Shown: positions 25,284-46,407 of the stretch, piece after piece | Position numbering within the stretch: position 1 is the first letter of the stretch | Layout: the number at the start of each line of letters is the position of its first letter | Notes under the pieces: generated by a model | Seen by the model: the letters and a program-made list of their open reading frames with translations, nothing else | Told to the model about the DNA's origin: nothing | The model's database searches: none | Made by a program: the position numbers and the translations under genes | NCBI GenBank assembly: GCA_045636425.1 | Contig: JAZTXM010000013.1 | Coordinates: 86,500-150,499 of the forward strand | Direction: 5' to 3' | Source of the DNA: Clostridia bacterium | Lineage (GTDB): Bacteria; Bacillota; Clostridia; UMGS1883 | DNA length: 64,000 nt

Positions 25284-25380
25284 GCCCTCTCAGGGTTCGA
25301 ATCTCCGGACAACTTGATTAAAAGGCTGTAAAAACAGCATGTTTAGACACATATGTTTTCCGTGCAAACCCCAATATGAT
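25284..25380. repeat. att-like repeat: partial tRNA-Lys 3' core (ggacaacttgattaaaag) plus a 55-nt element-end sequence
   Basis: 25307-25380 is near-identical to 28491-28563. The 23 nt gccctctcagggttcgaatctcc preceding it recur at 28384-28406. Confidence 0.6.
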
Positions 25381-25401
25381 AGTATATATTCAAAATAATT
25401 A

Positions 25402-25527
25402 TCAGAAGTTCCTAAAAGCTAACTCCGTGGCTGTTAAAAGCGAATATCCCTTTCCCAGTTCATGTTTAATCTCTCTCATTCTTTCGACATCTGTGATAGA
25501 GTCACCTTGGAAAAGTATAGTTTTCAT
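25402..25527 (-). pseudogene. Truncated GDSL/SGNH hydrolase (N-terminal 41 codons only)
   Basis: MKTILFQGDSITD... carries the GDSxxD block. The frame ends 22 nt from the element-end repeat. Confidence 0.5.
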
Positions 25528-25601
25528 TATATAAGGAGGAACTGAAATTCAATTTCAGTTCCTCCTTATATAAATTCAGTTAGTTACTAAAACAAAGCAA
25601 C

Positions 25602-25952
25602 TTATATATACTTTTGTGCAATTCTTGACATTTCGGGAAGTTTCTTTTCTATATCCTTTACCAGTGCAAATTGGTTTCTCGCACGGTCAAGGTTGTGATT
25701 TTCCCTGTGTATTTTAAAATATGTATCTCCGTTTATGTAGTCTGCAAGGAATCTTATTCCGCACTCGTATGTCATAAGAAGTGCCGAAAGCGGAAGAAGC
25801 TCTGCCTCTTTTTTAGTCAGATTTGCCCCGACCTCACCTAAGAATCCCTTGGCAAACGCCTCATACTTATCAAGACCAAAATAAACCTTTTCAAGGTCGT
25901 ACTTGTTAGATTCCATTGTATATTCCCTCCGCAAAGAGTTTTTTAACGGCAC
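25602..25952 (-). CDS. Hypothetical protein
   Basis: 116 aa. Overlaps the 3' end of the upstream nucleotidyltransferase gene by 47 nt. Confidence 0.3.
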   Translation of the reverse strand: MPLKNSLRREYTMESNKYDLEKVYFGLDKYEAFAKGFLGEVGANLTKKEAELLPLSALLMTYECGIRFLADYINGDTYFKIHRENHNLDRARNQFALVKDIEKKLPEMSRIAQKYI

Positions 25953-26799
25953 TTACAACAGATTCCTTGTCCTCACGGTAAGTAACACCGTACCATTTTT
26001 CATCGGTTGTAAGAACCTTTACCCTTTCGCCATTTTCCTTAATAGCACGGTCAATAACAAAGGGAATGTAAAATTCGTCTTTTAAAGGATTTGAAAGATT
26101 TTCCATAAATTTCACAAAATCTGCTTCCACACGGCTGAAAATTTCAGGTCTTAGTCCCCACATATTCATGGAAACAGTAGTGTCAAGCGGAATACCGCTA
26201 TTTTTATCAAGAGCCGTATGCTCAGTGATACTCTTTAATATGCCGCCCTCAACCTCGCATACACCGCGTGCTACGGTGCCATTTTCGGTAAGGGTATTAC
26301 CAAGCTTATATCCTACCATGCAGGCTAAGTCCGATGAAGTTAATTCATCATAAATGGTCTTAAAAGCACTCTGTCCGTAATAGTCATCTGCATTGATGAG
26401 AGCAAAAGGCTCCTTTACCACGTCTTTACAGCAATATACTGCGTGGCCTGTTCCCCACGGTTTTGTCCTTCCTTCAGGAGCAGTAAAGCCCTCGGGAAGA
26501 TTCTCCATATCCTGGAAAACATACTCCGTCTTAATTCTTTTTTCTATTCTGTTTCCCACTATTTCACGGAAATCCTTTTCTATATCCCTGCGAATAATGA
26601 AAACAACTTTATTAAAGCCTGCCTTCATTGCATCAAAAACAGAAAGGTCAAGGATTACTTCTCCTCCGGGACCGATAGGCTCAAGCTGCTTGAGCCCTCC
26701 GAATCTGCTTCCCATTCCGGCAGCCATAACAACAAGTGTTGCATCTTTGCCCATATAAAACACCGCCTTTATATATAATCGGTATTTTATTATACACAA
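25906..26799 (-). CDS. Sugar-1-phosphate nucleotidyltransferase (UDP-sugar pyrophosphorylase-like)
   Basis: LVVMAAGMGSRFGG...KQL nucleotide-binding signature. 297 aa. Confidence 0.65.
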   Translation of the reverse strand: MCIIKYRLYIKAVFYMGKDATLVVMAAGMGSRFGGLKQLEPIGPGGEVILDLSVFDAMKAGFNKVVFIIRRDIEKDFREIVGNRIEKRIKTEYVFQDMENLPEGFTAPEGRTKPWGTGHAVYCCKDVVKEPFALINADDYYGQSAFKTIYDELTSSDLACMVGYKLGNTLTENGTVARGVCEVEGGILKSITEHTALDKNSGIPLDTTVSMNMWGLRPEIFSRVEADFVKFMENLSNPLKDEFYIPFVIDRAIKENGERVKVLTTDEKWYGVTYREDKESVVSAVKKLFAEGIYNGI

Positions 26800-27524
26800 T
26801 TCATAAGAGAGAGTGCCGCCTCATCCGCAACAATCGTCACATCGTTATGAAGCTGAAGTATTGACGCCTGATTCTTGGGACTAACAGGTCCGCAGATTGC
26901 TTCATACAAAGCCTTTGCCTTGTTCTCACCCGAAGCTATAAGAAGAATCTTCTTAGCTTGCATTATGCTCTTAATACCCATTGTGTATGCTTCCTTGGGA
27001 ACTTCGTCAATAGAATCAAAGAATCTTGAATTTGCATTAATGGTGCTTTCTGTAAGCTTCACGCAATGTGTTTCTGTTTCAAAAGCACAGCCCGGCTCAT
27101 TAAATCCGATATGTCCGTTATCACCAATTCCAAGAAGCTGCATATCAATTCCGCCCACACTGCGGATTACGTTGTTATATCTTTCGCTCTCAATTTCACT
27201 GTTTTCCTGCGTTCCGTCAGGTACGTTTACATTCTTTTTATCAATATTGATGTGGTCAAAAAAGTTTTCGCACATAAATCTGTAGTAGCTCTGAGAATTA
27301 TCTCTTGTAAGACCCTTGTATTCGTCAAGGTTTACCGTGGTAACATTTGAAAAATCAATATCGCCCTTCTTATACCATTCAATAAGCTGAGCATATGTAC
27401 CCAAGGGTGTTGAGCCTGTTGCCAGACCCAAAACCGCATCGGGTTTCATAATTACCTGTGCTGAAAGGATGTTTGCCGCCTTACGGCTCATGTCATTGTA
27501 ATCTTTTGCCTTATAAATTTTCAT
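26790..27524 (-). CDS. nagB: Glucosamine-6-phosphate deaminase NagB
   Basis: MKIYKAKDY...LGLATGSTP...NLDEY signature of NagB. Confidence 0.85.
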   Translation of the reverse strand: MKIYKAKDYNDMSRKAANILSAQVIMKPDAVLGLATGSTPLGTYAQLIEWYKKGDIDFSNVTTVNLDEYKGLTRDNSQSYYRFMCENFFDHINIDKKNVNVPDGTQENSEIESERYNNVIRSVGGIDMQLLGIGDNGHIGFNEPGCAFETETHCVKLTESTINANSRFFDSIDEVPKEAYTMGIKSIMQAKKILLIASGENKAKALYEAICGPVSPKNQASILQLHNDVTIVADEAALSLMNCV

Positions 27525-27734
27525 TGTTTTCTATCTCCTTCTCTATATCCCTGCAAATAATGGAAACCACTTATTAAAGTTTGCCTTTATGTACAATCTG
27601 TATTTTATTATACATAACTCATAGCAAATGTATTTGCATAAAAGTAAATTTTTTTTGCATTATTAGCAATTCGCAAACATTCTAATCCGAAAAACCAGCG
27701 AACGATTTAGACACAGGGATTATATCTCAAATGC

Positions 27735-27786
27735 CTTCGGGCTGTAATATTGAGGATTTACTTGAAAATCCAATGAGTTGAGCACT
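27735..27786 (+). repeat. Truncated duplicate of the 3' end of the DUF3791-HTH gene (element-end module)
   Basis: 27735-27830 aligns to 38875-38962, covering ...NIEDLLENPM-stop and the downstream sequence. Confidence 0.55.
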
Positions 27787-27852
27787 TTTATGTATGATAA
27801 TCTTGTTTTCGTGAAAACAACAATCTCAACCTCTTTTCTTTGTTAATCCCCC

Positions 27853-28131
27853 TTAGTGCAGTAAGACTCGAACACCTGTTGTCTCAAACGAATTATTTTT
27901 GAAGCCTTTCAATTTGTCGGTCTTGAAGGGCGGCAGCCCATCTGCGACCTCCGCATTAAAATTCTCCTAAAAATAATCCGTTTGAGATGCGAGCAGTTTT
28001 AACAGTGGCAATTTTTTATAAAACAAGGAAAAGCCCGCAGGTAATACTTCCGTATTATCAAGGGATTTGACACAGTTTTAGGAGAAATTACCCTGTTAAA
28101 ACCAATAGGGGTTCGAGTCTTACTGCACTAA
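27853..28131. mobile_element. MITE-like 279-bp insertion bounded by 24-bp inverted repeats
   Basis: ttagtgcagtaagactcgaacacc at 27853-27876 versus ggggttcgagtcttactgcactaa at 28108-28131. This segment is absent from the otherwise homologous copy at 38962-38980. Confidence 0.4.
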
Positions 28132-28157
28132 CCAAGCCAAAAACAGGGAATTTTTCC

Positions 28158-28270
28158 CAGTAGATGTCAAATAGATGTCAAAACAGCACTTTTCAAAAAA
28201 AATTAAGAAAACGTAAAAACCGCCTAACCCTATTGGTTAAGCGGTTTTTAACTGGTGAGCCATCGGAGAT
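28158..28270. repeat. Copy of the tRNA-Lys-proximal element end (agatgtcaaa direct repeats, terminator, first 18 nt of the tRNA 3' end)
   Basis: About 95% identical to 46238-46350. The tRNA-derived portion stops after tggtgagccatcggagat and is followed by a 130-nt unrelated insert. Confidence 0.65.
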
Positions 28271-28463
28271 GTGTATGCTTTCGCATCCACCCTGCTTGAC
28301 GACCGTGAGCTTTGCTCACAGTACCCGTCTGCGCACCACGTTCGCTAAAAATATGCCACCGGCATATTTTCTTTACGCTCCGTGCCCTCTCAGGGTTCGA
28401 ATCTCCTATAATTTCTGCAAACAAAATTAAAAGAGATATCCTTGCGGACATCTCTTTTAATTT

Positions 28464-28563
28464 TGGTGAGCCATCGGAGATTCGAACCCCGGACAACTTG
28501 ATTAAAAGCTGTAAAAACAGCATGTTTAGACACATATGTTTTCCGTGCAAACCCCAATATGAT
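28464..28563. repeat. att site: exact 45-nt copy of the tRNA-Lys 3' half plus the 55-nt element left-end sequence
   Basis: 28464-28508 is identical to 46332-46376. 28509-28563 (ctgtaaaaacagcatg...caatatgat) recurs at 25326-25380. Confidence 0.7.
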
Positions 28564-29155
28564 GGGGGTTTACTTGTTATCCATTTTTATTGGTAATTAA
28601 GTTTTTTTAATACGGTAGATGTCAAAATAGATGTCAGATTGTAATTTCTCTTCTTGTACTTAGTCTTAATCATTCATAAAACATTCTTTGCATATTTCTT
28701 TTGCTTTTTCATACCAATCGTTCATATTTTTACTGCCTTATTTAGTAACTATAGTATATCACAAATAAGGCAAGGCTTCAATCATTTTTGTCCTAAAAAC
28801 GTTCGTTTTTAGGACTGTTGTTTTGTTCCAATGTTCCAAGTTTTTCTTCACTTTTTGAAAATTCTAAACCTCTTCTTGATCCTGCTCCATTTCCTATCTG
28901 ACCACCAATAGATTAAAAATAAAAGCAACATAATAAGCCAGAGCGATACACAAAAAATATTGATTACAATGATAGCAATGCCACTAAAAAAAGAATTACC
29001 TATGGCTGTGAATAGCCATTTTCTGCATAATAGAGTTAAGACAACTTTGATTTACTCATGACATCCCCCTTTCTCCTTCTTCGCGTTATAAACTGCTACT
29101 ATGACCTCAAGCAACGCCACAAGCACCAGTTTTATGTACTTCATATTCTTATCAT

Positions 29156-30091
29156 TTATATTTCACCACCCATATAGTAGATGTATTCTTCAATTTCTTC
29201 GGGAGAGAAGCCTTTTCCGAGAAGTTTGTCAATATCATCGGGAGAATAGCCCTGATAGCACGCTATTGATTTTAAATCCTCTATGTATTCATTTTTTGAG
29301 TAGCTTCTTCCCCATCCGTAGGAAGAGAATCCAAAATCCCACCAATTCTTTCCACTGTAGTAGCTATATTCAAAGTTTTCTTTTGTCAGTTTCCCGTCAT
29401 AGCCGATTTTAAGTATCTCCCCTTCCGCGACATTTACTTCTTCGTACTCTCCATTTTTAAGGTTGCTAAACAGCGGTGAATCTACAAGTGCTTTGTAGAG
29501 TATTTCGTCGGTACTGGCATAAACATAAAGCTTAAGCTTCGGGAAATGAAGAATTGATACAGGGGAATCTCCCTTTACGAGATAGAGATTATTTCTGTCA
29601 TCCAGTATTGAAAAGCTGAAGCTTCCTTCAACCTTTTCTGCCATGTATCTGATACTGTCAAAACAGATTCTTTTCTGACTTTCTATTAACTGTACCGCTA
29701 TGTAGGAATCCGTTTCGACTTTTGTTTTAGGAAGCTTGTACTTCTTTTTAAGTTCATCATCGTTATAAAGTACTCCGTTATGCGCAAGGGAAAACCTTGC
29801 ATTTTTTGTTTTCCCGAAAAAAGGATGATTATTATAGTTTCTTTTCTCACTTCCCTGCGTGCTATGGCGTGTATGCCCTATCAGTGCTTTCAGGTTATCG
29901 GAATGCTGAAAGTCAATTTTATTTGCTGCCTTTGCTTCTTTGATAATTCTGATTATTCCTCCGCTGACAAATGATATTCCCGTTGCATCCGTACCTCTTA
30001 CGGATGCGTGTTCTGCAAGGGAATTAGTAAGGTCAGACAATCCTTTAATATCTTTGTTACTGTAGTTTAAAAACCCGAATAATCCGCACAT
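29156..30091 (-). CDS. Class II (Ntn) glutamine amidotransferase-like protein
   Basis: N-terminal MCGLFG has the Cys nucleophile at position 2. The Ntn-hydrolase fold is about 230 aa, with an extra C-terminal segment of about 80 aa. Confidence 0.65.
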   Translation of the reverse strand: MCGLFGFLNYSNKDIKGLSDLTNSLAEHASVRGTDATGISFVSGGIIRIIKEAKAANKIDFQHSDNLKALIGHTRHSTQGSEKRNYNNHPFFGKTKNARFSLAHNGVLYNDDELKKKYKLPKTKVETDSYIAVQLIESQKRICFDSIRYMAEKVEGSFSFSILDDRNNLYLVKGDSPVSILHFPKLKLYVYASTDEILYKALVDSPLFSNLKNGEYEEVNVAEGEILKIGYDGKLTKENFEYSYYSGKNWWDFGFSSYGWGRSYSKNEYIEDLKSIACYQGYSPDDIDKLLGKGFSPEEIEEYIYYMGGEI

Positions 30092-31228
30092 TTACATTTC
30101 CTCCGTTTCTGTTTCAATTTCATTTACATACAATCTTTTTTGTTTCAGGTATTCGATAAGTTCTGCTTTCTTAGGTAGAATCTTCTGTACAAAGTCACTC
30201 CAGGACATATTTTCCATTTCAAGGTCTGCCATATGTATTGCATGGAAGCATATTTCGTCCACAAGCTGAAGAGTAGCCACAAACGTACTATAGCAAAGCG
30301 TGCCTCTGAATAATCTGAATTCTACCGTATTGGCATTTTCAAGATTGACTGCAACATACCTCCCCATATGCCTGTCCTTGGCTTTCTTATAGGTTTCTTC
30401 CGTTGTGGTAGAGATAGTTGCATATCTCGCCGCCCATCGATTCAGATTTTCAATTGTTCTTCTGCTGAATTTGACTATTTCGTTCCAGTGTTTTTCAACA
30501 AAGAATACGATTCTTCCGATAACTGCTTCCTGCTGTTCGTATGTTTTTCCGAAAGCCTCTCTGCTCACATGAATGTGCAATCCGCAGGTACTTGTCTGAT
30601 GTGACCTGTAGCCCAGGCGTATGGCTTTATCAAATACTTCGTGCCAGTTCATTTTGTTTATGTGATAGTCAAGGCTCATAGGGTGACTTACTATTTCAAA
30701 GCCATCGTCGATACTTCCGTCATGCTTACAATAGATGTGCTCGCCTGCATCGTTGGCAATATTAATGATTGTCTCTGCCTTATCATTGTCTTCCCCACCT
30801 CTGTCTATCTCCAATTCAACACCGAAAAATAAATTACCCGAGCCGTGGAAAATCGGTTCGGGTTTATAACTGTAATTTTTTATTGCTCCGCTTATAAGCT
30901 TCTGATAGCAGTCATAGCAATATGGATAATCGCTGTCATCGTTTTCGTAATACGCGGAATCGTTATGTATAAGTCTGCCACAGTCTTCGCAGTTGGTATA
31001 GTTATAATCGTAGCAATGTCTGCAAAGGACAATATTTTCATTACCTTCTGCATCTTCACGCCAGATTCTTTCATTACAGTTCATACATACTACCGTTTTT
31101 TCTTCAAGGCAATCTGTACAGTAGATTTTTCCTTCGAATTCGTGATAGTTCTCTCTTTCAAGAATTGCCCCGCAACAAGAGCAGGTTAAGTTTCCGTTTT
31201 TCATTTTTGTTCTCTCCTTAGTATTCAT
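30092..31228 (-). CDS. Amidoligase (glutamine-synthetase-like, Amidoligase_2-type) with N-terminal multi-CxxC zinc ribbons
   Basis: Four CxxC pairs in the first 110 aa. Then GVELEI (E.E metal site) and TCGLHIHVS (H.H motif), as in GS-like amidoligases. Adjacent to the GATase on the same strand with no gap. Confidence 0.6.
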   Translation of the reverse strand: MNTKERTKMKNGNLTCSCCGAILERENYHEFEGKIYCTDCLEEKTVVCMNCNERIWREDAEGNENIVLCRHCYDYNYTNCEDCGRLIHNDSAYYENDDSDYPYCYDCYQKLISGAIKNYSYKPEPIFHGSGNLFFGVELEIDRGGEDNDKAETIINIANDAGEHIYCKHDGSIDDGFEIVSHPMSLDYHINKMNWHEVFDKAIRLGYRSHQTSTCGLHIHVSREAFGKTYEQQEAVIGRIVFFVEKHWNEIVKFSRRTIENLNRWAARYATISTTTEETYKKAKDRHMGRYVAVNLENANTVEFRLFRGTLCYSTFVATLQLVDEICFHAIHMADLEMENMSWSDFVQKILPKKAELIEYLKQKRLYVNEIETETEEM

Positions 31229-31529
31229 AGTTCATTAGCATAGTTGAGTGTGTTTTATCATCGATTACAAATACTTTTGCTGTAGTAACCGGTGTTATGT
31301 TTAACACATACTCCTTTTCATATTCAGGTACTTCCTGAGTATGAATTATTACTTGCTTCCCGTCTTTTTCAGACAAAGAAAAAACCTGCAGATAATCTTT
31401 ATCTACAGGCAGGTTGTGTATCATCTCCCACATAATTACTTGCTGCGGAATCGGGATATTCTCCGCTACATCTCGTGTTATGAATTTTTGATTTTTAAAA
31501 ATATTTACACCTCCGACATTCAGTTTCAT
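31218..31529 (-). CDS. Hypothetical protein (first gene of the amidoligase operon)
   Basis: 103 aa. Overlaps the amidoligase start by 11 nt. Confidence 0.35.
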   Translation of the reverse strand: MKLNVGGVNIFKNQKFITRDVAENIPIPQQVIMWEMIHNLPVDKDYLQVFSLSEKDGKQVIIHTQEVPEYEKEYVLNITPVTTAKVFVIDDKTHSTMLMNYEY

Positions 31530-31786
31530 ATGTATGATATATATTTTTGGGACGTTAAAATCTGATTTAATTTATAACATAATATTAAAGATTTATACAC
31601 GTAACAATAAATTATAAAGGATTCATATAATCACTCACGGGAGAGCTGTGTAGTATATAAGCTATATAAGTATATAATTAAATAAAAAATAAATTCAATA
31701 CTCTTATTTAAGCATTGAATTACTATCTAAATCATTAAATTATATATTAACAAAATTGCGACGATTACATAGGAGGATATTAGATT

Positions 31787-32836
31787 ATGAATATACATAC
31801 TTTTGAATTAACTTCAATACTTACTAATGACAAATACTATAAAATACAGAAAGCTTTAAAAAATAAAGATAAATCCAAATGGAAATCCGAACGTAACGGT
31901 ATGCTATATTTTGGTTTACGTGAAAAAGGGATTTTAATTTATATGTTTATACTGAAGAAAAAGAACTACTACTCTTACCGCATTATATATAGAATATCCG
32001 CGAGAAGAGTCCTTGATAAGAATAATTATGTTGATCTTTTTGATTTACAACTATATGACGAATTGGAATTGGAAGCAAATCGACTTCTGTTTGAAAAAAG
32101 TAACCTTCTACCTAAACTGAACGAATGCGAACTTACCCGAATTGATTTTTGTTACAATGCCAGGCTTGAGAATCAGTATCAGGTTAAGGCATACATAAAG
32201 ACAATTAAAAACGGCTACATACCACCAAAACATTACGAGTTTCTCCTCTATAGCGAAACGGGCAAACGGTTTATTCCACCTAAAAATGACTTCACTTTTT
32301 CCAAAGACAACTATGTGGAGATTTCTATATACAACAAAAAGGCTCAGATGAAGCAAGACGACTACTACCCCAAAAGTGAAATTGACAGAGCTTCAAATAT
32401 AGTGAGAATGGAAATCAGATGTTATAAAAAACTAATCAAAGAGTATTGTGAGAAGCATAACATTAATTCCCTGCATCGCTTTATGGGATGCTGTGGTAAT
32501 TTGGGAAACGAGCTTTACAACAAGTATCTTTCTAAAATATCAGGCAGCGGCTGTATATATACTCTCAAAGAAACCAATCAGCGTATTGATATGAGTGAAT
32601 TCCGTAAAAAGGATATAACGCTGATGAAAGAATTTGTTAAGGACATAAATCTCCACGGAGCACCTGAAACTTTTGAAGTATATGAAAGAACATACAGTAA
32701 AGCGATATTAAAAAGAATGGTGGAACTGTTTGAAATAATTGATACAAGCTTTATAACATTACCTGTACGTGAGGCTAAATTGTTTGATAACGGTAAGCTT
32801 CCATCACCTTTAAAGTTGTATTATGAATTATGCTAA
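31787..32836 (+). CDS. Hypothetical protein (possible replication/mobilisation protein of the element)
   Basis: 349 aa, Lys/Tyr-rich. Precedes the Xis-like gene. No motif securely recognised. Confidence 0.35.
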   Translation: MNIHTFELTSILTNDKYYKIQKALKNKDKSKWKSERNGMLYFGLREKGILIYMFILKKKNYYSYRIIYRISARRVLDKNNYVDLFDLQLYDELELEANRLLFEKSNLLPKLNECELTRIDFCYNARLENQYQVKAYIKTIKNGYIPPKHYEFLLYSETGKRFIPPKNDFTFSKDNYVEISIYNKKAQMKQDDYYPKSEIDRASNIVRMEIRCYKKLIKEYCEKHNINSLHRFMGCCGNLGNELYNKYLSKISGSGCIYTLKETNQRIDMSEFRKKDITLMKEFVKDINLHGAPETFEVYERTYSKAILKRMVELFEIIDTSFITLPVREAKLFDNGKLPSPLKLYYELC

Positions 32837-32875
32837 TAACATTAAATTAATAATAAACCGAAAGGAGCACATATA

Positions 32876-33064
32876 ATGTTTGAAAACCCATACGATATCT
32901 TATCTCCCGAAGAAGCAATGGACGAACTTCGGATAGGGAAAAATTCTATTTACGAACTATTGAATTCAGGAAAACTTAAAGGATTTAAAGTAGGACGCAA
33001 CTGGAAGATTCCACGAAAATCTATAGACAAATATATTGACAAAAATATCAGAGAAAGCGAGTAA
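32876..33064 (+). CDS. Excisionase-like HTH protein (MerR/Xis superfamily)
   Basis: 62 aa; ...LRIGKNSIYELLNSGKLKGFKVGRNWKIPRKSIDKYI matches the HTH_17 / Xis signature. Confidence 0.55.
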   Translation: MFENPYDILSPEEAMDELRIGKNSIYELLNSGKLKGFKVGRNWKIPRKSIDKYIDKNIRESE

Positions 33065-33070
33065 ATAATT

Positions 33071-33769
33071 ATGAATAGTTTTGAAGTAATAAGATATTTA
33101 ACAGTACATATGCACGGGTACAAAAGAATCGGCAAAGAAAATGTATTACAGAAAGTTACCGCTACAGGATTCTTTGCGTTCCTTAATATCAACGGTGTCA
33201 GAAAAGATATAATCATAACAGCAAAACACTTTGCGGTTGAAATATCAAGAGTTGTTTTTATGTTACATTACAAAGAGAATGGCAAATTAGTCACAGTTCC
33301 GGTGTCTACAGAAGTAGAGTGGAATTTTTCAGAAGATGCAGACCTTGCTTATTGTGAGTTTAAACCTATTGAGGAACGTTTTCGAAAAATCACCGGAAGA
33401 AGAGTATATGCTGCAGCATTAACCCAGAAGGATTTTTTAACTGAAAAACAATTAAATGAAATCAATATTTTAGACGAGGTTGTTACGGCAGGTTATCCGG
33501 CAGGAGAATCAAGTACACATCACAAATTCCCTTTGTTTTCAAAAGGCTATGTTGCCTCTCTGCCGAAAGATGTTTTTGAAGACGGAGAAGGATTTGTTAA
33601 TATTTCTGCTATAGGAGGCTTCTCCGGTGCACCCGTATTTTTGAACAGCCCCGGTTTAAAGTTTCTTGGAGTTCTTGTAAGCGGTATAATGGAAGAAGAT
33701 TCTGATTCATCAGTGATGTGCAAGTATGTTCCCGCATATAAAATACTTAGGTTATTAGAACAGCAATAA
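33071..33769 (+). CDS. Trypsin-like (S1/S1C) serine protease domain protein
   Basis: TAKH (His), an Asp, and GGFSGAPVF (a GDSGGP-like Ser motif) in the canonical order. No signal peptide. Confidence 0.55.
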   Translation: MNSFEVIRYLTVHMHGYKRIGKENVLQKVTATGFFAFLNINGVRKDIIITAKHFAVEISRVVFMLHYKENGKLVTVPVSTEVEWNFSEDADLAYCEFKPIEERFRKITGRRVYAAALTQKDFLTEKQLNEINILDEVVTAGYPAGESSTHHKFPLFSKGYVASLPKDVFEDGEGFVNISAIGGFSGAPVFLNSPGLKFLGVLVSGIMEEDSDSSVMCKYVPAYKILRLLEQQ

Positions 33770-33945
33770 TCAGCTTATAAAGGGTTTCCAAAGTGTGGAA
33801 GCCCTTTAAGATTTTATTTTGAAAATAACAGATAATTAATAATAAAAGATAACAAACGTAGGAGAAAAAACTTATGAAATTTTCGGATAATCAAACCTGT
33901 GAAATAGGTACTATTATAATGAACGTCAATAAGGAGGCAAATTAA

Positions 33946-38310: not shown

Positions 38311-38923
38311 TGCAAAAAGTTGCCTTGCCTGTATGTTTGATTATACAATAAACGATTGCAAGCTTGAAAGTGATTGGATTGCATCACTTTTTATGACTAC
38401 AGGCTATGCACAAAAGTTTGAAACTGGTAATCCCGCTATTATTTCAGGAATGTCAGGAATCGAACTCGGAAAAGCAATCGTAAAAAAGGCCTATAACAGA
38501 AAGGATGCCCCCGAAGCAAATTTCCGTGAAGACCGTTCTCCCGAATATTGGGCAGGTTGGGCTTTGGCAGAATATCAGTGGTTTTCAGGTCGCATATTTA
38601 AAGATATCTTTGAACGTATTCCGCTTTCAAAAATCATCAATATGTATTCTGTTTATCATGAAATGGATATAAGCCAGTTTATAGATTCAATGGAAAAGTT
38701 CTATAACGAAACAATTCTTGAAACCAAGCTTAAAAGAATTCGTGAAAACCGAGGTGTTTCTCAATCAGAACTTGCAAAACTTTCAGGTGTTAAACTTCGC
38801 TCTATCCAGATGTATGAGCAGAAGGTTAATGACATAGATAAAGCACAAGGACATACATTATATAAAATCTCAAGAGTCCTCGGATGTAATATTGAGGATT
38901 TGCTTGAAAATCCAATGGGTTGA
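38276..38923 (+). CDS. DUF3791-like protein with C-terminal XRE HTH
   Basis: C-terminal HTH (LKRIRENRGVSQSELAKLSGVKLRSIQMYEQ). Its 3' end is part of the repeated element-end module. Confidence 0.45.
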   Translation: MTHAYSELYLSDAKSCLACMFDYTINDCKLESDWIASLFMTTGYAQKFETGNPAIISGMSGIELGKAIVKKAYNRKDAPEANFREDRSPEYWAGWALAEYQWFSGRIFKDIFERIPLSKIINMYSVYHEMDISQFIDSMEKFYNETILETKLKRIRENRGVSQSELAKLSGVKLRSIQMYEQKVNDIDKAQGHTLYKISRVLGCNIEDLLENPMG

Positions 38924-38980
38924 GTACTTTTTATGAACGATAATCTTTATTTCGTGCACAAAACAGAGGATTTCTCTTAG

Positions 38981-39075
38981 CAGATGTCAAATAGATGTCA
39001 AAACTGCATTTTTTTAAACAAAGCAAAAAAGTAAAAACCGCTTAACCATATTGGTTAAGCGGTTTTCCAGTGGCA
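38981..39075. repeat. Third copy of the element-end module (agatgtcaaa twice, terminator hairpin, degenerate tRNA-core remnant)
   Basis: cagatgtcaaatagatgtcaaaac...aaaaccgcttaaccatattggttaagcggtttt, then ccagtggcaaaaaag in place of aactggtgagccatcggag. Confidence 0.55.
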
Positions 39076-39180
39076 AAAAAGATGCAACGTTTTTTTAACG
39101 ATATACTTGCTGCCACTCGTGGGATATATTTGCTTTAAAAACTCAGCCATTTATAACAATGTTTTCTTGCCATAGCACCA

Positions 39181-42100
39181 CTAATTCTCGTCGTCATCTT
39201 CCCTTCTCCGAGTTTCTTGTTCAAGTTGATGATGTCTAATATTAAGTTTTGCCTCTCTGACATATCCATCAGAAATAAGACGAAGTGTTTCTGCATACTT
39301 TGCATATCCTATTGATTCAGCGGATTCTGCAAGTTTCTTATATTTTTTAGCAAGTTGGAATTCCGGCTTCCCTTCGGGATCAATCCATACAACTCCTCGC
39401 TGATTAAAAGTACCAATCCTATATCCCACACGCATTTCTTCATTTTCAATCTTATTGAGTTCTCTCATGATAAAATCATCAATAAGACCATTCTCAAGTT
39501 TACGCGCATAAGAAAGGCCATTACCGATTGTTTGCTGAACTATAGCTTCTCGATCTTCTACCTTAGCCCAAGCCTTGCAATAGTTAACCCATTCGCAAAA
39601 ATCGTTTTCGTTGTAGTTTCCATCCCAATCTGTTCCTGGAATCACACAAAAATCGTGTAGAATTTTCCAAAGTCTCTTTGCCATATGTTCCGAGATGTTT
39701 TCTTCGTGTGTTTCAGAATGTCTTTTCTTATAGAATAGTCTTATCAGTTCGCAGAAAAACATTGGCTCATTTGCCAATCGATATCTCAAAGCTAATGGTT
39801 TTACTTTGGAATATTCATCAAGCCAAGATAAATATATAAGTTCTACATCAGAAATTTCCTCTATGCTTATACTCCTCGTCTGCTGTAATAATTCAATCAA
39901 ATTTCTAACAGCATCGGGATCCAACCTATCACCGCTTTCAGTGATTGCAGCTTGAGTTAACACTTCGTGTAATTTGTCATGAGAAATACTACAATTTTCA
40001 GCCGTGATACCAAAAAGATTAATAGCCGTAGCATATCGTTTTTGTTCAACCAACTGCCCCCACACATAGTTTAAATCAACTTCATCATCCAAGCCAAGAC
40101 GTGGAACAACGATAGAATTCCAATACAAATTGCTCTGCTCGCCAAGTATGTCTTTGACAATTTCAAACAAACGCATAGAGGGACGAAGACATGAAAGAAC
40201 CCAAGAAACATAATCCAAACTATAAGTTTCCAACTCTGTTTGAATTATCGCATCATAATCATTGGCTATTATATATCCGTTAATTATTGATGCAAAAATC
40301 TCCTTACTCAACCTGGACTCATAACACATTTTTAAAAGCGCTTTTATGTCTTCTTCTTTTAGTTGCTTACCTAAGTTTTGAGCAATCCATGCTTCGTTGT
40401 TGAGTTCTTTTGCAAATTCTACTACTGAATCTATTCCGTACGAAACATATATTTCATAAACTGAGGTTTCTTGCTTATTACACTTAGCTTCCCATTTTGT
40501 ATGAAATTCACCCTCATTGTCATAATCAAAATATCCTGGTTCATACAATCTTCTATATATATATCTAATATCCGTAGGAGCAACTTTTTCAATAGTAGTA
40601 TCTAGTAACTTCATCATGAAATCGTCCAATTCATCCTCTGTGTTATGAACTAACCATTCTTTTTGATTTACAAGCTGTTTCCAAAATGGATATTTTTTCG
40701 AGTCATCCCATTCCATTGCCTGTTCTGATATTAAAGATAAATACTCTACGATTGTATCACGGTCCATATCATCGTAATATGATAACAGATCAACCATTTT
40801 AGAATGGTCATCTTTAGCTAACCCTAACGCTAAGTGTGAATAATATCGGTACAAATCTAAAATATCTTCATCAGGAGTTCTAACTTCTTTCGGGGAAATT
40901 GAAATAATATATCGAGGTTGATGTGTATCTCCGGTGTAACGTGTAGTATGTGGAAGTAGCCCTTTGATCACTATCCAAGCAATGTCAGGACATTCTTGTT
41001 GTAATGCTTTAATTGCATTCTTCTGCTTTTCTTTTGATGCTAAAGTCTGTATATGCCACGGGAGCATAATGCTAATAATAGAATTAATCGGTGTATTAGA
41101 TGAATTGGTCTTATCAAATTTCAATTTTGAAATCTGACCTAATATTCTAATGCATTTTACAAAATATTTTTTATCCCAGGCCAAGCCTTCCAAAGACCAC
41201 AATATTGAACAAATGAAATTTCTGGAAAACAACAAATTATCGCCATTCTTCGGAAATAAAGATTCTATATTTTGAGGAACATTAACAATTTGCCTCTCCA
41301 AACAAGATAAATACTCTGTTGGGTGAATTTCAGCAACAGTCGGCAGATGTGAATTTAAACTCATCCACGTCGAACTACTCGCTTCAGAGAATAAGTTGCG
41401 AATCAACATTATAGCTTCATAATTAACTGTTTCTGAAGAACACGACAATTGCGTTCCAAACAGATTGCAAATCATTGCAAGGCCATGTATTATTCCATTT
41501 CGTAATGCTTCAGAATGAACAAACGGTCCAGACTCTGGCACTAGGATACTAAAATCACCATTATCCTGAATTCGTTTATCTTTTTCTTTAAGAACCTCTT
41601 GAGAGGTTTCAAAGAATTTTTTTATATCATTTTCAAAATATAATTTTGAACAAATTTTGATAATTGCTCGTCTATGATTAACATACCATAGTCCTTGTGA
41701 AAAAGAAACATTTGGGTTTGGCTGCAAAGAATTCTCTTGTATTATTTTTTGGATTTCCAAATAACTTCTTCCTAAAAACGACTCCAAAAATTTCTTATCA
41801 AAATCATTTTTTTCATTCCAGGATCCTACCAAAGCCAACTTTGCCCAAATGGAATCAATATCGAAATCAAGGGGTTCCGGCATAACATCGGATATCGCTA
41901 ATAAGTTTTCGAATTTTTGCTTGATATACTCTGGAATATTATCCAATGTAATATGTGCGGCCGCTTTATCACAGCTCGCTGCATAATCAACGAGTTGAGC
42001 CCAAACCGATACAGCGTTTTCCTTACTATTTGAAGCAATTAATGCATGAATTAAAAATTTATTTATGCTACTCTCATAATCCAAGTCAAAGACAAGAATT

Positions 42101-42705
42101 GTAAAGACTTTACAGAATTCCCACAATTGCTCGTCAGTAATATCTTGATCATTATTAGCCTTTTTTAAAAGAACTTTGATGGCATGCAACTTTTCTCGGT
42201 TGGTGCCATTAGAGTATCCCGGTCTATCGATTCTGTCAACGAAATCGTTCGCATCTAATGCACCGTTTGCTTGATCATAAATAAAGCGCAACGAATTTGC
42301 GTTCGCAACTGATCCCGAAATCAATACTATTTTATCAGTTCGCTTATCAAACATCGGTTTGTTAAAATCACTCCAAGCAGAAATAACAACATCCTTAAAT
42401 GTAGCATTGTTTTCGGTAAGAGTTATCCCATGCTTGATTTGACACACTAACTTTGCAGAATATGTATCAAATGACGAAAATAAAACGATATCATCAGTAT
42501 CATATCCCGATCTTTTAGCTTGAAAAAGCACCGATGTTATGGGCAAATTCAGCAAAGGCGAAAATCCATCTACCAACAACGTCAACAAAAATGCGGCTTG
42601 GACACGATGTTCAAAATCCACCCCTCCACCGCCAGTTGAAAAAGGGTTGCTGAGCGCTGATACCGTTGCCTTGTTGTGTTTTTCTTGGTTTTCTTTTGTT
42701 ATCAT
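39181..42705 (-). CDS. Large (1174 aa) uncharacterised protein: possible N-terminal PD-(D/E)xK-like motif plus a long alpha-helical repeat region
   Basis: N-terminal STGGGGVDFEHR...YDTDDIVLF...AKLVCQIK has the D...D...QxK spacing of restriction-endonuclease-like folds. The remaining roughly 900 aa are helical with no NTPase motif. Confidence 0.45.
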   Translation of the reverse strand: MITKENQEKHNKATVSALSNPFSTGGGGVDFEHRVQAAFLLTLLVDGFSPLLNLPITSVLFQAKRSGYDTDDIVLFSSFDTYSAKLVCQIKHGITLTENNATFKDVVISAWSDFNKPMFDKRTDKIVLISGSVANANSLRFIYDQANGALDANDFVDRIDRPGYSNGTNREKLHAIKVLLKKANNDQDITDEQLWEFCKVFTILVFDLDYESSINKFLIHALIASNSKENAVSVWAQLVDYAASCDKAAAHITLDNIPEYIKQKFENLLAISDVMPEPLDFDIDSIWAKLALVGSWNEKNDFDKKFLESFLGRSYLEIQKIIQENSLQPNPNVSFSQGLWYVNHRRAIIKICSKLYFENDIKKFFETSQEVLKEKDKRIQDNGDFSILVPESGPFVHSEALRNGIIHGLAMICNLFGTQLSCSSETVNYEAIMLIRNLFSEASSSTWMSLNSHLPTVAEIHPTEYLSCLERQIVNVPQNIESLFPKNGDNLLFSRNFICSILWSLEGLAWDKKYFVKCIRILGQISKLKFDKTNSSNTPINSIISIMLPWHIQTLASKEKQKNAIKALQQECPDIAWIVIKGLLPHTTRYTGDTHQPRYIISISPKEVRTPDEDILDLYRYYSHLALGLAKDDHSKMVDLLSYYDDMDRDTIVEYLSLISEQAMEWDDSKKYPFWKQLVNQKEWLVHNTEDELDDFMMKLLDTTIEKVAPTDIRYIYRRLYEPGYFDYDNEGEFHTKWEAKCNKQETSVYEIYVSYGIDSVVEFAKELNNEAWIAQNLGKQLKEEDIKALLKMCYESRLSKEIFASIINGYIIANDYDAIIQTELETYSLDYVSWVLSCLRPSMRLFEIVKDILGEQSNLYWNSIVVPRLGLDDEVDLNYVWGQLVEQKRYATAINLFGITAENCSISHDKLHEVLTQAAITESGDRLDPDAVRNLIELLQQTRSISIEEISDVELIYLSWLDEYSKVKPLALRYRLANEPMFFCELIRLFYKKRHSETHEENISEHMAKRLWKILHDFCVIPGTDWDGNYNENDFCEWVNYCKAWAKVEDREAIVQQTIGNGLSYARKLENGLIDDFIMRELNKIENEEMRVGYRIGTFNQRGVVWIDPEGKPEFQLAKKYKKLAESAESIGYAKYAETLRLISDGYVREAKLNIRHHQLEQETRRREDDDEN

Positions 42706-43113
42706 TAATTACCACCTATTTTTTTCGTACAGAATGTTTTCGATATCAAAGATAATTCGAATTTTGGTTAACCATCGTTGTATTTATAACTCTACGCTTA
42801 AAACATCTTTCTTATAACAACAGCTTGCTCCGGAATTATAACAGGGGTTATTCCTTCACCTCTATCATATCCATAATAAGAATGGCTGAAGAGTAAGTTT
42901 GATTCAAAAGCAAATAAATTGATTTTATAATGCACGAAGTACAATTCATGAGCTGTAGGCTTGATTCATGAAATCCTTGATTTCAATCAACCCCACCAGC
43001 CAATTCATTGTTTTTAAGCTTTACTTGAAATCTTTATAGAATCAGTGAACAATTTAGATGCCACTAATTTTAGCAATAATTCGTGTTAAGTTAGAAATAA
43101 AAAATATTTAACC

Positions 43114-43818
43114 CTAAAACATAATACATATCACCATAACAACTATTGGTAGTACAAACAAAAATAGTTTTAATATCCAATTGGCTATAATTTTCATTTG
43201 AAGAAGTATAGGTGATATTTCGCTTAAGTAGTTTCTAATTTTTTCTTTATCTTCATCACCACCTGCATCAAAAGCAGAAAGTTTTTTAAACCAACGAATC
43301 TCCTTTTCTTTGCATAACGACTTGACTGTGTTAAAAAAATCAATATCATTTCTAAATTCAACATTATCCACTATCTCGTTATATTTAGAAATAAATGAAT
43401 CCAATTGCTCTTCTTTCAAACTTCTTTTTAGAGTTTTTAAATCATTTATAGCCTTAGTTATCCTCTCAATTCTCTGTGCATAATTAGCATTACTGTTTAT
43501 CAATGAATACGCAAGCATAATTACAGACAAAACAAGGCCAAAATATTCACACATTTTACTATTATACCATTCAAAATATAGTGCAGTCAAAGAATGAATA
43601 ATTAAAAAAATGCTATAATACACAAGAATAAAATCAGACATCTTTTTACTATCAGATAGTCTTTTTTCCATGTTTATGTAATTACTAAGTGTTGTTTTAC
43701 AAATCCTTCTCCATACTATTAAATTTTCATAATCTGTTGTCATTTGTATATCTCTCCGTTTCGCATTTTCGACTTTTTTGACAATCTTTATACAAAGACT
43801 GTATAATCTGGATGCCAT
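43114..43818 (-). CDS. Membrane protein with two central TM helices, a helical segment and a C-terminal TM (abortive-infection-effector-like; hypothetical)
   Basis: TM helices FILVYYSIFLIIHSLTALYF, FGLVLSVIMLAYSLI and ILKLFLFVLPIVVMVICIMF. The start is uncertain; the ORF is open to 43899 and overlaps the upstream gene. Confidence 0.4.
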   Translation of the reverse strand: MASRLYSLCIKIVKKVENAKRRDIQMTTDYENLIVWRRICKTTLSNYINMEKRLSDSKKMSDFILVYYSIFLIIHSLTALYFEWYNSKMCEYFGLVLSVIMLAYSLINSNANYAQRIERITKAINDLKTLKRSLKEEQLDSFISKYNEIVDNVEFRNDIDFFNTVKSLCKEKEIRWFKKLSAFDAGGDEDKEKIRNYLSEISPILLQMKIIANWILKLFLFVLPIVVMVICIMF

Positions 43819-43835
43819 GCTTTTTCCACAGTTGT

Positions 43836-44354
43836 TTATTCTACATGTTCTGCTTTGTTTTTTACAAGTCCTATAATCGCCGAAATAATAACTACGCACT
43901 CATATATCACACCGCCCATTGATGCAACTGCCATGTTATAAATAATGCACAAAGGCGATTTAATAAACATTGCCCGTCTTGTGTTCTGCGGATTTGAAAA
44001 AGAAAGACTCACAGTTGATGTAACAAGTCCCGCTATTAAAAACAACGAATAAATATTTTCCCAGGCAAGCATACCTGCAACTGCAATAAGAACAGAGGTT
44101 ATAATTACTTCAGCTTTGCTTTCACCTTGTTTCTTGTTACGAAAAGCAAAGTATAAACATATAACCGCAGACAAAAAATTAAGTGCAGTTGCCGTGGGAG
44201 CTGAAATCAAAAAATAATGTACAGAAAAAGTTAATGCCGTCACACACTGGGAAACTATAATCCCAAACTGAGTTTTTCTTTGATATGAAACAAAACCCAA
44301 TATTACAGCAACAATTCCCAGCGCCTGTCCAATTATATAAGTTAAATTATCCAT
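43836..44354 (-). CDS. YgjV-family inner membrane protein
   Basis: 172 aa with 5-6 TM segments. The N-terminal YIIGQALGIVAVILGFVSYQRK resembles YgjV. Confidence 0.5.
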   Translation of the reverse strand: MDNLTYIIGQALGIVAVILGFVSYQRKTQFGIIVSQCVTALTFSVHYFLISAPTATALNFLSAVICLYFAFRNKKQGESKAEVIITSVLIAVAGMLAWENIYSLFLIAGLVTSTVSLSFSNPQNTRRAMFIKSPLCIIYNMAVASMGGVIYECVVIISAIIGLVKNKAEHVE

Positions 44355-44599
44355 AGTAATATCTCCCTTTTCAATATCCTCCAGTACACCCTATATAAAT
44401 GACATAAGGCGTAGGTACCACTAATCAACGCCTCCCTTGTGTAAAGGGAGGTATTTTATAATTTCGACTTTTTTCGACGCTCTTCATAGGCTTATCTTAA
44501 GTTTGAGCTAAAAACAAATAAATTGACTTTATAATGCACGAATTGCAATTCATAACTGTAGGCTCGATTCATGAAATCCTTTAATTCAAACTATCCCTA

Positions 44600-45823
44600 T
44601 TATAAAGTCTTATTCTCTTTAATAAAATCAATCATATTCACATGTAAAATCCCATCTCGTTTTTGCAATAAGGTATCTGTTGTGAATAAATATTTTGGGA
44701 AATTATCTCTGATTTTTGTAAATGGTCTGTATTCTCGTTCCTCGGTAGATTGTTCCGCAATGGTCATAGCAACCTGAATATAAAAATAGTCATCTACATT
44801 CTGTCTTACTATAAAATCACATTCCAGATTTCCAATTTTACCTACACTTAATTTATATCCTTTAGATTTTAAATAACAGAATAATAAGTTTTCAAGTACA
44901 GGTCCGTAGTTAATTCTGCCGTCTACATTCATAGAATAGTATATACTCAAATCGGCAAGATAATATTTTTGCTCTGTTTTTAACGACTTTTTCGATTTCA
45001 TATCAAATCTTGGGCATTTATATATTATCTTTGCACTTTCAAGCATTTCGATATATTTGTGTACCGTATTTTCTTTTACCGCTATATTTTCTTTAGCCAA
45101 ATATTCTACAATGTTGGACACGCTAATTGTAGAGCCAAAATTATTTACAATAAAGGTTTGTATTTTTTCAAATGCTGCTCGATTTCTAATTCTTTTATTT
45201 TTAGATATGTCCTTTTCAAATATTTGAGTAATAACACTTTGCACATATAGATTTCTATCATCAACATTATCAAATTCCAAAGATTTGGGAAATCCCCCGT
45301 CACGAATATATGTTGTAAATTCTTCAACAATATTCTGTGATACCTCTTTGCCAAGAAACTTTTTCATTTCCAGATATTCATAAAATGTCAGCGTATACAT
45401 CTCTACTTCGATATATCTTCCTGTAAGCTTGGTAACAAGCTCACCGCTTAAAAGATAGGAATTCGAGCCGGTAATAAAAACAGAATGTCCATCTTCCCTA
45501 TATCCATTTATTACTTCCTCAAAATTTTTAACATTTTGAATTTCGTCAATAAAAATATATTTTTTCTCACCATCGGTAATATAGCTATCTATAACTTCTT
45601 CTAATTTGTCGGCAGTTTTAATATTTTTAAACCCTCTTTTATCAAGATTAATATTAACTATATTTTGTTCGCTAACACCATTAGATTTTAAATCCTCCAT
45701 AACAGAAAGCAGAAAATACGACTTGCCGCAACGTCTGATTCCGGTTACGACTTTTATAATATCGCTATCATAAAATCCTCTTATTTTGTTAAGGTATTCT
45801 TCTCTCATAAAAATTTTAGCCAT
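44600..45823 (-). CDS. AAA-family ATPase with DUF4143-type C-terminal domain
   Basis: Walker A GIRRCGKS and Walker B IFIDEIQ. Characteristic C-terminal domain. Confidence 0.7.
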   Translation of the reverse strand: MAKIFMREEYLNKIRGFYDSDIIKVVTGIRRCGKSYFLLSVMEDLKSNGVSEQNIVNINLDKRGFKNIKTADKLEEVIDSYITDGEKKYIFIDEIQNVKNFEEVINGYREDGHSVFITGSNSYLLSGELVTKLTGRYIEVEMYTLTFYEYLEMKKFLGKEVSQNIVEEFTTYIRDGGFPKSLEFDNVDDRNLYVQSVITQIFEKDISKNKRIRNRAAFEKIQTFIVNNFGSTISVSNIVEYLAKENIAVKENTVHKYIEMLESAKIIYKCPRFDMKSKKSLKTEQKYYLADLSIYYSMNVDGRINYGPVLENLLFCYLKSKGYKLSVGKIGNLECDFIVRQNVDDYFYIQVAMTIAEQSTEEREYRPFTKIRDNFPKYLFTTDTLLQKRDGILHVNMIDFIKENKTL

Positions 45824-46331
45824 TCTAACCAGCCTCCTTTTGATTATATTATACCATATTTTTAGAAAATTGCAAGTTAAGGGGATAAAATTATTTAATT
45901 TATATATTTTTCGCCTCTTATAAGTTGTTTAATTGACACTTTTGAAATTGATAATGAGTTGAAAAGAGATTATTTCTTTATTTGTTTTTAAATGTAGAAT
46001 AAGTTAGTGAGCTATGAATATATCATTCTTATAGATGATATCCCCATAGCTCACTATTATAATCCTCGATGATGTTTAGTGCATATAAACTCAATTTTTA
46101 GTAATAACACTTTTATTAATTTATACACTACTTTCTAAATTAATTCTGACTAACTTTTGACTACAAATAGGAAATATCCATTTGCCAATAAAAGCCCTTA
46201 CGCTTCCCTTAACAAAGCCAAAAACAGCAAATTTTCTCAGTAGATGTCAAATAGATGTCAAAACGGCACTTTTCAAAAAAATAAAGAAAACGTAAAAACC
46301 GCCTAACACTAATGGTTAAGCGGTTTTTAAC

Positions 46332-46407
46332 TGGTGAGCCATCGGAGATTCGAACCCCGGACAACTTGATTAAAAGTCAAGTGCTCTGCCGACTGAGCTA
46401 ATGGCCC
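46332..46407 (-). tRNA. tRNA-Lys (UUU)
   Basis: Cloverleaf with encoded CCA; anticodon loop cuUUUaa. Target of the att copies at 28464-28508. Confidence 0.85.

Follow-up and report, generated by a model that had tools for sequence, protein, structure and literature searches.

Here we describe positions 25283-46407 of a 64-kb stretch of contig JAZTXM010000013.1 from a Clostridia bacterium (hereafter the window), which are probably a stack of integrative elements that arose by repeated tyrosine-integrase insertion into the 3' half of a tRNA-Lys(UUU) gene. The region consists of segment C, next to the gene, element B (28509-39075), the only unit with recombination genes, a short insert that we call M, and the outermost segment A (25325-28270), a decayed remnant holding nagB and an insert resembling a miniature inverted-repeat transposable element (MITE). 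The first-pass annotation had proposed serial site-specific integration with subsequent decay, which is supported both by the anatomy of the window and by comparative loci. It had also spoken of an 'ICE/CIME-like array' (integrative and conjugative element; cis-mobilizable element), of which the CIME-like part stands and the ICE part does not. Genes for type IV secretion, a coupling protein or a relaxase gave no Pfam, NCBIfam or PHROG match among the 19 principal open reading frames (ORFs) at 25602-45823, and, because no conjugation module was found, the region is not an ICE array. 'Decayed integrative replicative element / CIME-like array' is a better label.

The target is the last gene of a minus-strand cluster of five tRNA genes, Gly-Arg-His-Gln-Lys(UUU), annotated by ARAGORN. 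The features that mark the attachment (att) site and the ends of the units next to it are:

46332-46407, minus strand: tRNA-Lys(UUU), last of the cluster (ARAGORN; Rfam tRNA, 67.6 bits); its nt 32-76 (46332-46376) are the att identity block
46147-46331, minus strand: tRNA-proximal (P'-type) end module 1, with hairpin T1 at 46293-46329 and a repeat pair at 46241-46262
38943-39075, minus strand: degenerate end module 2, the right end of B, with a repeat pair at 38981-39002 and a hairpin at 39033-39067
28509-28638, plus strand: distal (P-type) end of B, with the 55-nt left module at 28509-28563 and a repeat pair at 28616-28638
28464-28508, minus strand: displaced tRNA-Lys 3' fragment, nt 32-76, exact (repeat finder, self-BLAST)

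The displaced fragment matches the gene at 45 of 45 positions, as had been claimed, and lies in direct orientation 17.9 kb from it; the repeat finder and self-BLAST, used to compare the window with itself, recovered every repeat listed previously. In tRNA numbering the identity block starts with the first base of the anticodon loop, nt 32. Two shorter pieces of the gene lie further out: 18 bases at 28253-28270 (nt 59-76), starting within the T loop, and a 20-nt partial core (nt 32-51) at 25305-25324. The partial core had been reported at 25307-25324, so the core was correct and its extent was not. Known crossover subsites of tRNA-directed integrases are the anticodon loop (A) and the T loop or junction (J) (PMC4383910). 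As in islands of the Islander type, an intact tRNA gene is thus accompanied by a displaced direct 3' fragment, an integrase gene lies inside, and the fragment starts at a known subsite. As in accretion arrays, at least two units follow in series with direct att copies (28464-28508, 28253-28270 and 25305-25324).

The ends of the units are repeated as well. The left modules at 25321-25380 and 28504-28563 are 98% identical, which bears out the duplicated left end noted before. The three right modules each carry two copies of TAGATGTCAAA, a terminator hairpin and then the 3' bases of the tRNA; they were found as annotated, with small coordinate shifts only, and in self-BLAST are 93% (28129-28270 and 46210-46349), 83% (28140-28248 and 38960-39066) and 81% (38960-39066 and 46221-46327) identical. 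The third of them, at 38943-39075, keeps only TGG of the tRNA. Read in the tRNA sense, each of the three hairpins (T1 type) has the score of an intrinsic terminator. With at most one mismatch, TAGATGTCAAA has 10 matches in the window (2.3 expected; none of 100 shuffles reached 10), and 8 of the 10 form four tandem pairs, at 28161/28172, 28616/28628, 38981/38992 and 46241/46252; the pair at 28616/28628 is the motif that had been seen, at 28615, just inside the left end. The pairs lie 69-70 nt from the end of the tRNA and 107 nt from the displaced core. Three items go beyond the first-pass annotation: the 193-nt insert M, a duplicated 24-nt block (X) and the TGG-only third module.

We compared element B with a set of fetched loci, L001-L030; those that carry the same modules are metagenome-assembled genomes (MAGs) of Clostridia/Oscillospiraceae. 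The genes of B are:

29156-31529, minus strand: accessory genes for a class-II GATase, an amidoligase and a DUF960 protein (Pfam); the same genes occur in L008, L009 and L030
31787-32836, plus strand: rolling-circle Rep-like protein, 349 aa, a core gene of B
32876-33064, plus strand: HTH_17 protein, a core gene of B
33071-33769, plus strand: trypsin-like protein, 232 aa, a core gene of B
33946-34131, plus strand: Xis-like HTH_17 protein, 61 aa, a core gene of B
34159-35335, plus strand: tyrosine integrase pseudogene, in pieces 34159-34743 and 34676-35335 (Pfam Phage_integrase and SAM-like)
35442-37355, plus strand: 637-aa family-conserved protein with a predicted initiator-helicase fold (MCM-type) like Rep of Staphylococcus aureus pathogenicity islands (SaPI) and Cch of the staphylococcal cassette chromosome mec (SCCmec)
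37612-38310, plus strand: DUF3990 protein (Pfam), with the HTH_3 protein a PADLOC candidate pair, PDC-M42A/B
38276-38923, plus strand: HTH_3 protein (Pfam), partner of the DUF3990 protein in that pair

The integrase had been described as frameshifted, and the comparison agrees: the break is a gain of 4 nt in a purine run near 34709-34728, where the two ORFs overlap, and three intact homologues lack these 4 nt in the DNA alignment. The tract itself (34709-34728) is an (A/G)-rich run of GAAA-like units, of a slippage-prone kind. When rejoined, the integrase is 95% and 81% identical to the intact homologues P0001 and P0002, respectively. It consists of three parts, an N-terminal extension of ~65 aa, a SAM-like core-binding domain and a catalytic domain, and the solved structure closest to it by sequence, a distant one, is Tn1549 Int. 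A tblastn search with three family integrases matched only 34198-35332 in the 64-kb window, and Pfam found no integrase in A or C. Neither Pfam nor PHROG detected packaging or capsid-redirection genes (for example, terS) in B. For the 349-aa protein and two homologues, Phage_CRI matched all three below threshold (best E 1.6e-4), and a search of the 349-aa protein against PDB sequences gave nothing useful. The DUF3990/HTH_3 cargo pair is 92-93% identical in amino acid sequence to that of L001.

The 637-aa protein matched no Pfam, PHROG, NCBIfam or PDB sequence model, and nothing among annotated phages (INPHARED) and plasmids; only 45 representatives were found among 1.84 billion clusters. Its AlphaFold (AF2) model, built from an 18-sequence alignment, had a pLDDT (predicted local distance difference test) of 78.6. 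The best Foldseek matches of the model were SaPIbov1 Rep (8tch, E 5e-11) and SCCmec Cch (5dgk, E 6e-11), and PriRep1 and MCM chains came next. TM-scores were modest (0.37-0.47), and the Walker-A lysine is not conserved in a four-member alignment, with GKT in the window and GG in the consensus. The prediction that the protein belongs to the SaPI-Rep/SCCmec-Cch-type fold class is therefore supported, whereas helicase activity is not.

The repeat pair accompanies integrases of this lineage elsewhere. In L001-L006, L009-L012, L016, L018 and L020 the tandem pair AGATGTCAAATAGATGTCA is separated by 48-81 nt from the 3' end of a tRNA-Lys or tRNA-Thr gene (in L001 and L004 the distance is counted from a displaced 17-nt tRNA copy, not from the gene). 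The 23-mer form was found in four Clostridia MAGs, and a 19-21-mer form in L018 and 15 further fetched loci, 12 of the 15 beside a tRNA gene or a displaced 17-nt copy. Eight loci were recovered when metagenomes were scanned with the 21-mer, and in four of these it adjoins tRNA-Thr(UGU). L001 and L004 have the same five-tRNA cluster as the window, and in L002 and L003 the pair adjoins tRNA-Lys(CUU). The hairpin sequence varies among the tRNA-Lys(UUU), tRNA-Lys(CUU) and tRNA-Thr loci, whereas the repeat pair is constant. End module 1 of the window is 92% identical to L001 928-1130, with the pair 69 nt from the tRNA end.

The gene order of B recurs in several of these loci. L012, a compact 5-kb relative, occupies the same tRNA cluster as B and points the same way; its order is Rep, HTH_17, Xis, Int, the gene of a 585-aa protein, which carries the repeat pair at the 3' end, a hairpin and tRNA-Lys(UUU). 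In L005, L006 and L009-L011, which lie at tRNA-Lys(CUU), Int is 70% identical, the pair is 78 nt from the tRNA, and a D5-type primase replaces the Rep-like gene. L008 and L030 have the gene order of B with other cargo; in L030 (8007-10078) the cargo past the helicase gene encodes an NTP_transf_2/Polbeta protein and an AAA_30/Schlafen-like helicase, and an inverted repeat pair with left-arm spacing was seen near the end of the contig. The tRNA-Thr loci L016, L018 and L020 have the identical 21-mer next to the tRNA, and by tblastn the only proteins in common with the window are Int (33-43% where the sequences align) and, in L018, Xis; the N-terminal motif of Int is conserved in these relatives. 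L018 1-10059 (JGI Ga0209936_1002077) is an independent tandem array at tRNA-Thr(UGU). It starts with the tRNA, a terminator, a repeat pair 48 nt from the tRNA and an integrase gene. The 9-kb satellite-like element encodes Int, a small terminase subunit (Terminase_4), an ERCC4 nuclease, a primase-helicase and Xis. On its far arm a second pair lies 124 nt before an 83-nt, 96% identical copy of the 3' part of the tRNA with its terminator, and beyond this fragment another integrase-like region begins. In L003 (1871-2964) and L004 (2654-6632), the pair and hairpin by tRNA-Lys are followed by genes for an AraC-type regulator and glycoside hydrolases; no Int or Xis was found in the fetched stretch of either locus, and these modules are probably scars of lost elements. 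In a search of the related loci with two mismatches allowed, far-arm repeats were not above chance.

Outside B, the following features were identified towards the left end of the region:

28271-28463, minus strand: insert M (193 nt), between A and B, with terminator T2 (28420-28463), a spacer, block X (28383-28406) and a structured 112-nt block Y
28134-28270, minus strand: end module 3, the right end of A, with a repeat pair at 28161-28182, a hairpin at 28214-28250 and 18 nt of tRNA at 28253-28270
27853-28131, no strand assigned: MITE-like 279-bp insert in A with 21-nt perfect terminal inverted repeats (DNA fold z -10.5)
27724-27822, plus strand: 3' end of a B-type HTH gene, a remnant, 83% identical to 38867-38965
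25381-27723, minus strand: interior of A, with a 116-aa ORF, an NTP-transferase gene (25906-26799) and nagB (26790-27524), of backbone-like GC content
25283-25380, minus strand: outermost junction, with a copy of X (25283-25306), the partial core (25305-25324) and a left-module copy (25325-25380)

Direct repeats of 18 nt, copies of tRNA nt 59-76, lie on either side of insert M (28253-28270 and 28464-28481). The insert folds strongly on both strands (z -4.3 and -3.3), and its 24-nt block X holds an inverted 14-nt copy of the T arm. A homologous M is found in L001 (741-927), directly after the real tRNA-Lys, with 86% column identity across the part that aligns, cores included; this version too holds the inverted 14-nt T-arm copy and folds strongly, and behind it come the 17-nt repeat, T1, a repeat pair and an HTH gene of the B type. 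The arrangement in L001 therefore resembles what the locus of the window would have been before B and C arrived. In L004 (2380-2653) the T2-like terminator and the 17-nt repeat are alike and the 275-nt middle differs. M-type inserts are thus 193-275 nt long, lie between the tRNA-Lys 3' end and a 17-18-nt repeat, and each opens with a terminator. These features fit a remnant of a unit that would have used the T-loop subsite. X, the spacer and T2 may be part of M-type units or else native flank. Rfam searches of 24-48 kb and 27.6-28.6 kb gave tRNAs only and nothing credible for M, X or the MITE-like insert, and a metagenome scan with the 24-nt X block gave no matches. We also considered and rejected X/Y as a tRNA, a tmRNA fragment or the end of a group II intron; ARAGORN and Rfam gave no support, and L001 has no GUGYG-like start.

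The outermost junction (25283-25380) equals 28383-28563 minus 84 nt (28407-28490), and the X copy at 25283-25306 is identical to 28383-28406 (24/24). The missing 84 nt lie between the 14-nt inverted repeats GGGTTCGAATCTCC and GGAGATTCGAACCC that bracket T2. The simplest reading, that this junction is a deletion form of 28383-28508, explains why the partial core is only 20 nt long. Both att sites of A are truncated, to 18 and 20 nt. The MITE-like insert ends in the terminal inverted repeat TTAGTGCAGTAAGACTCGAAC and contains nested palindromes; its right end resembles a tRNA T arm, acceptor and CCA, and no second copy was found in the window or in the fetched loci. Sequence from upstream of nagB recurs (86-88%) within the 5' part of the NTP-transferase ORF (26573-26628 and 27536-27590; 26765-26805 and 27583-27623), which points to a local duplication or to a wrongly called start codon. 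At the left edge of A, a 47-nt near-perfect palindrome (98%) at 25527-25573, between small ORFs, is likely a bidirectional terminator.

From this anatomy, and from its conservation in the other loci, we infer the following order of events. The attP of the circular element would have contained the left module, a copy of tRNA nt 32-76, the element's own terminator T1 and the tandem pair of 11-nt repeats. After crossover at the anticodon loop, the element's copy would complete the tRNA, now ended by T1, and the old chromosomal 3' half with its terminator T2 would be displaced to the far end of the element, so that newcomers at the intact gene would shift older units outward. It is consistent with this that the displaced fragment starts exactly at the anticodon loop and that a terminator other than T1 follows the old 3' half. 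Judged by position, a B-type element, of which the ends alone survive, may have come first and given segment A; the short unit M would then have entered at the T loop, where the identity is 17-18 nt. The third arrival would be B, at the anticodon loop, followed by a unit that survives in part as C; B and C may instead have entered together as one composite. Decay would have removed the core and left end between C and B, truncated the HTH gene in A, let in the MITE-like element and deleted 84 nt at the outermost junction, and a 4-nt slip would have broken the integrase of B. The 17.8-kb composite of B and C, flanked by perfect 45-nt repeats, could presumably excise only with a related integrase in trans.

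Several observations weigh against this reconstruction. Among the three units there is a single integrase, and it is broken; C has neither a left end nor a core of its own. An empty tRNA-Lys site was not retrieved. Exact look-ups of GlpP and GH127 gave no record; the closest homologues of GH127, from the right flank (80-89%), are on contigs that all end at the tRNA cluster (that of L023 starts 6 nt inside tRNA-Lys), and the closest homologues of GlpP, from the left flank (78-91%), have other neighbours, with homology ending at 25251. Scans of IMG/VR with the 23-mer and 19-mer of the repeat pair and with the left module gave 0 matches, and no circular junction was found in the collections. A long displaced tRNA fragment was not found at the far end of L012 or L005. 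No arm-binding model of Pfam matched the N-terminal 65 residues of Int. It is possible, though unlikely, that only one or two true integrations took place, that the extra modules arose by duplication or unequal recombination, and that A is trapped chromosomal DNA. The 98% identity of the A and B left junctions and the perfect identity of the two X blocks would also fit duplication by homologous recombination; the right modules of A and C are 93% alike, whereas B's own is only 81-83% identical to either. The interior of A may be trapped chromosomal DNA because its GC content (0.42) is like that of the flanks (~0.40-0.43; B and C, 0.29-0.38) and nagB scores above the curated cut-off (TIGR00502, 302.6 bits). 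However, A keeps the B-type HTH remnant in the correct place and orientation by its end module, M lies between A and B in the state seen in L001, as expected from serial integration, A, B and C have mutually unrelated contents, and tandem arrays with decayed members are the common outcome in published cases (PMC5704250).

The repeat pairs most likely serve as arm-type sites, bound by the N-terminal domain of Int and perhaps also by Xis, as the first-pass annotation had suggested and as the spacing in the other loci supports. The motif tracks the Int lineage at similar distances on both arms, independently of the hairpin sequence, of the identity of the tRNA and of the other genes; repeated sites on both arms together with an integrase were found both in B (69 and 107 nt) and in L018 (48 and 124 nt). 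Since the 637-aa protein models as an initiator-helicase of the SaPI Rep/Cch type, and SaPI origins lie 3' of rep, the pairs might instead be origin iterons for this protein, with their closeness to the att sites incidental. The helicase gene contains the pair in its 3' end, or stops just before it, in L002, L005, L009 and L012; this also counts against arm sites. SaPI origins, immediately 3' of rep, comprise 6-12 iterons, arranged as two opposed sets that flank an AT-rich centre (PMC9371898), as opposed to only two repeats in the same orientation here. Furthermore, L016, L018 and L020 carry the identical 21-mer without a 637-aa homologue, B and L018 have pairs on both arms near the cores, and in the window 1.6 kb separate the pair from the helicase gene, directly 3' of which lie other AT-rich repeats and a terminator. 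We thus regard an origin as very unlikely. That the hairpin and repeat pair are native sequence 3' of tRNA-Lys, for example a terminator with a regulatory site, is most improbable. The modules of L003 and L004, between tRNA-Lys and ordinary-looking genes, would fit native sequence, whereas two of the three copies in the window are distant from all tRNA genes, an element gene contains the pair in L005, L009 and L012, L018 has a pair on its far arm, and the hairpin differs among tRNA targets while the pair stays constant. The repeats contain TTGACA twice on the tRNA strand; we found no -10 box and no promoter-scan match, and no promoter-like site is built on them.

Segment C, between B and the tRNA-proximal end module, contains cargo genes only:

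39076-46146, minus strand: segment C, cargo without a recombinase or left end, GC 0.29-0.36
39181-42705, minus strand: 1174-aa protein
43114-43899, minus strand: SLATT_5 protein (Pfam; PADLOC RTasSLATT, E 3.7e-20)
43836-44354, minus strand: YgjV protein (Pfam)
44600-45823, minus strand: AAA_14/DUF4143 ATPase, PADLOC candidate PDC-S01 (E 1.5e-136)

A 100-nt direct repeat (85%; 42894-42994 and 44498-44597) lies upstream of the 1174-aa gene and again between the PDC-S01 ATPase and YgjV genes, and may be a duplicated promoter or leader. C and part of B carry candidate anti-phage genes. Because the variable slot on the tRNA side holds such candidates, the site appears to behave as a defence-gene hot spot; the candidates are PDC-S01, SLATT and PDC-M42 and, in a relative, a nucleotidyltransferase with a Schlafen-like helicase. 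At the opposite flank (23973-25251), L028, L029 and L025 have a HAD-hydrolase gene between glpP and uxuA that is absent from the window; L025 has an extra 428-aa gene at the same place, and the genes on the upstream side of glpP are different in relatives. The glpP gene of the window, with a promoter and leader of its own, adjoins the island, from which we conclude that the left flank is rearranged.

Element B belongs to what appears to be an uncharacterised family of small integrative replicons of gut Clostridia, whose predicted make-up is Int, Xis, a rolling-circle Rep or D5-type primase, a SaPI-Rep/Cch-like helicase and variable, often defence-like cargo. More tentatively, the lineage of Int and its repeat pair as a whole may be an undescribed family of minimal integrative replicons with one arm-site sequence, which targets Lys-UUU, Lys-CUU and Thr-UGU; its members are possibly phage satellites or mobilisable islands that stack at tRNA-Lys as defence-like arrays, with miniature M units as remnants of a T-loop class. 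A conserved 21-nt repeat pair tied to one integrase lineage over three tRNA targets would provide a concrete pair of arm site and integrase. The predicted fold of the orphan 585-637-aa protein would extend the replication module of SaPI Rep and SCCmec Cch outside staphylococci.

The region thus appears to be a new instance of a known accretion process by elements of an uncharacterised family, and, the mechanism being textbook, it is mainly a well-resolved example from a poorly studied lineage of gut or rumen Clostridia. In streptococci, integrative and mobilizable elements, including those at tRNA-Lys, integrate, decay to CIMEs and are joined by a newcomer at the att site at the gene end (PMC5704250). 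As in the streptococcal accretions (relatives of ICESt1/ICESt3; S. agalactiae tRNA-Lys(CTT)), a tyrosine integrase uses the tRNA-Lys 3' end in the window, a newcomer sits at the gene-end att beside decayed residents with att remnants, and intact repeats flank the composite (PMC5704250). Unlike them, the window comes from a gut Clostridia-type host, has no conjugation or recognised relaxase genes that we could find, and has an integrase distantly nearest to Tn1549 Int and putative replication genes of the SaPI/SCC type. Since the att sites of A and C are truncated, and C has no left att at all, neither segment is an intact CIME. Islander lists 3919 islands, with 125 tandems of at least two members and 4 of at least three; as in the window, intact tRNA genes and displaced direct 3' fragments that start at the A or J subsite mark their ends (PMC4383910). 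An Islander tandem has an integrase and a fragment for each member, whereas the window has one integrase and two truncated fragments, so that, with an integrase in one member alone, it falls short of a tandem in the strict sense.

In its gene content B resembles SaPIs and other phage-inducible chromosomal islands (PICI) and SCCmec (8tch, 5dgk, 7pds), which are small integrated islands with Int, Xis and a replication module, the last of these being predicted in B. The D5-type primase next to the helicase in relatives of B recalls SaPI pri-rep, the tRNA-Thr relative L018 has a small terminase subunit, and the best fold matches of the 637-aa protein are SaPIbov1 Rep and Cch. In contrast to SaPIs and PICIs, B has no detected packaging or capsid-remodelling genes, no evident SaPI-like iteron origin and no known helper phage; sequence similarity of the 637-aa protein to Rep or Cch is undetectable, and its Walker-A lysine is unconserved. 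With integrases of the Tn916, Tn1549 and lambda type, the system of the window shares a three-part Int and direct repeats on both arms, 50-125 nt from the core. It differs from them in that arm binding is predicted, with no Pfam arm-binding match, and in that the target is a tRNA gene and not AT-rich sites.

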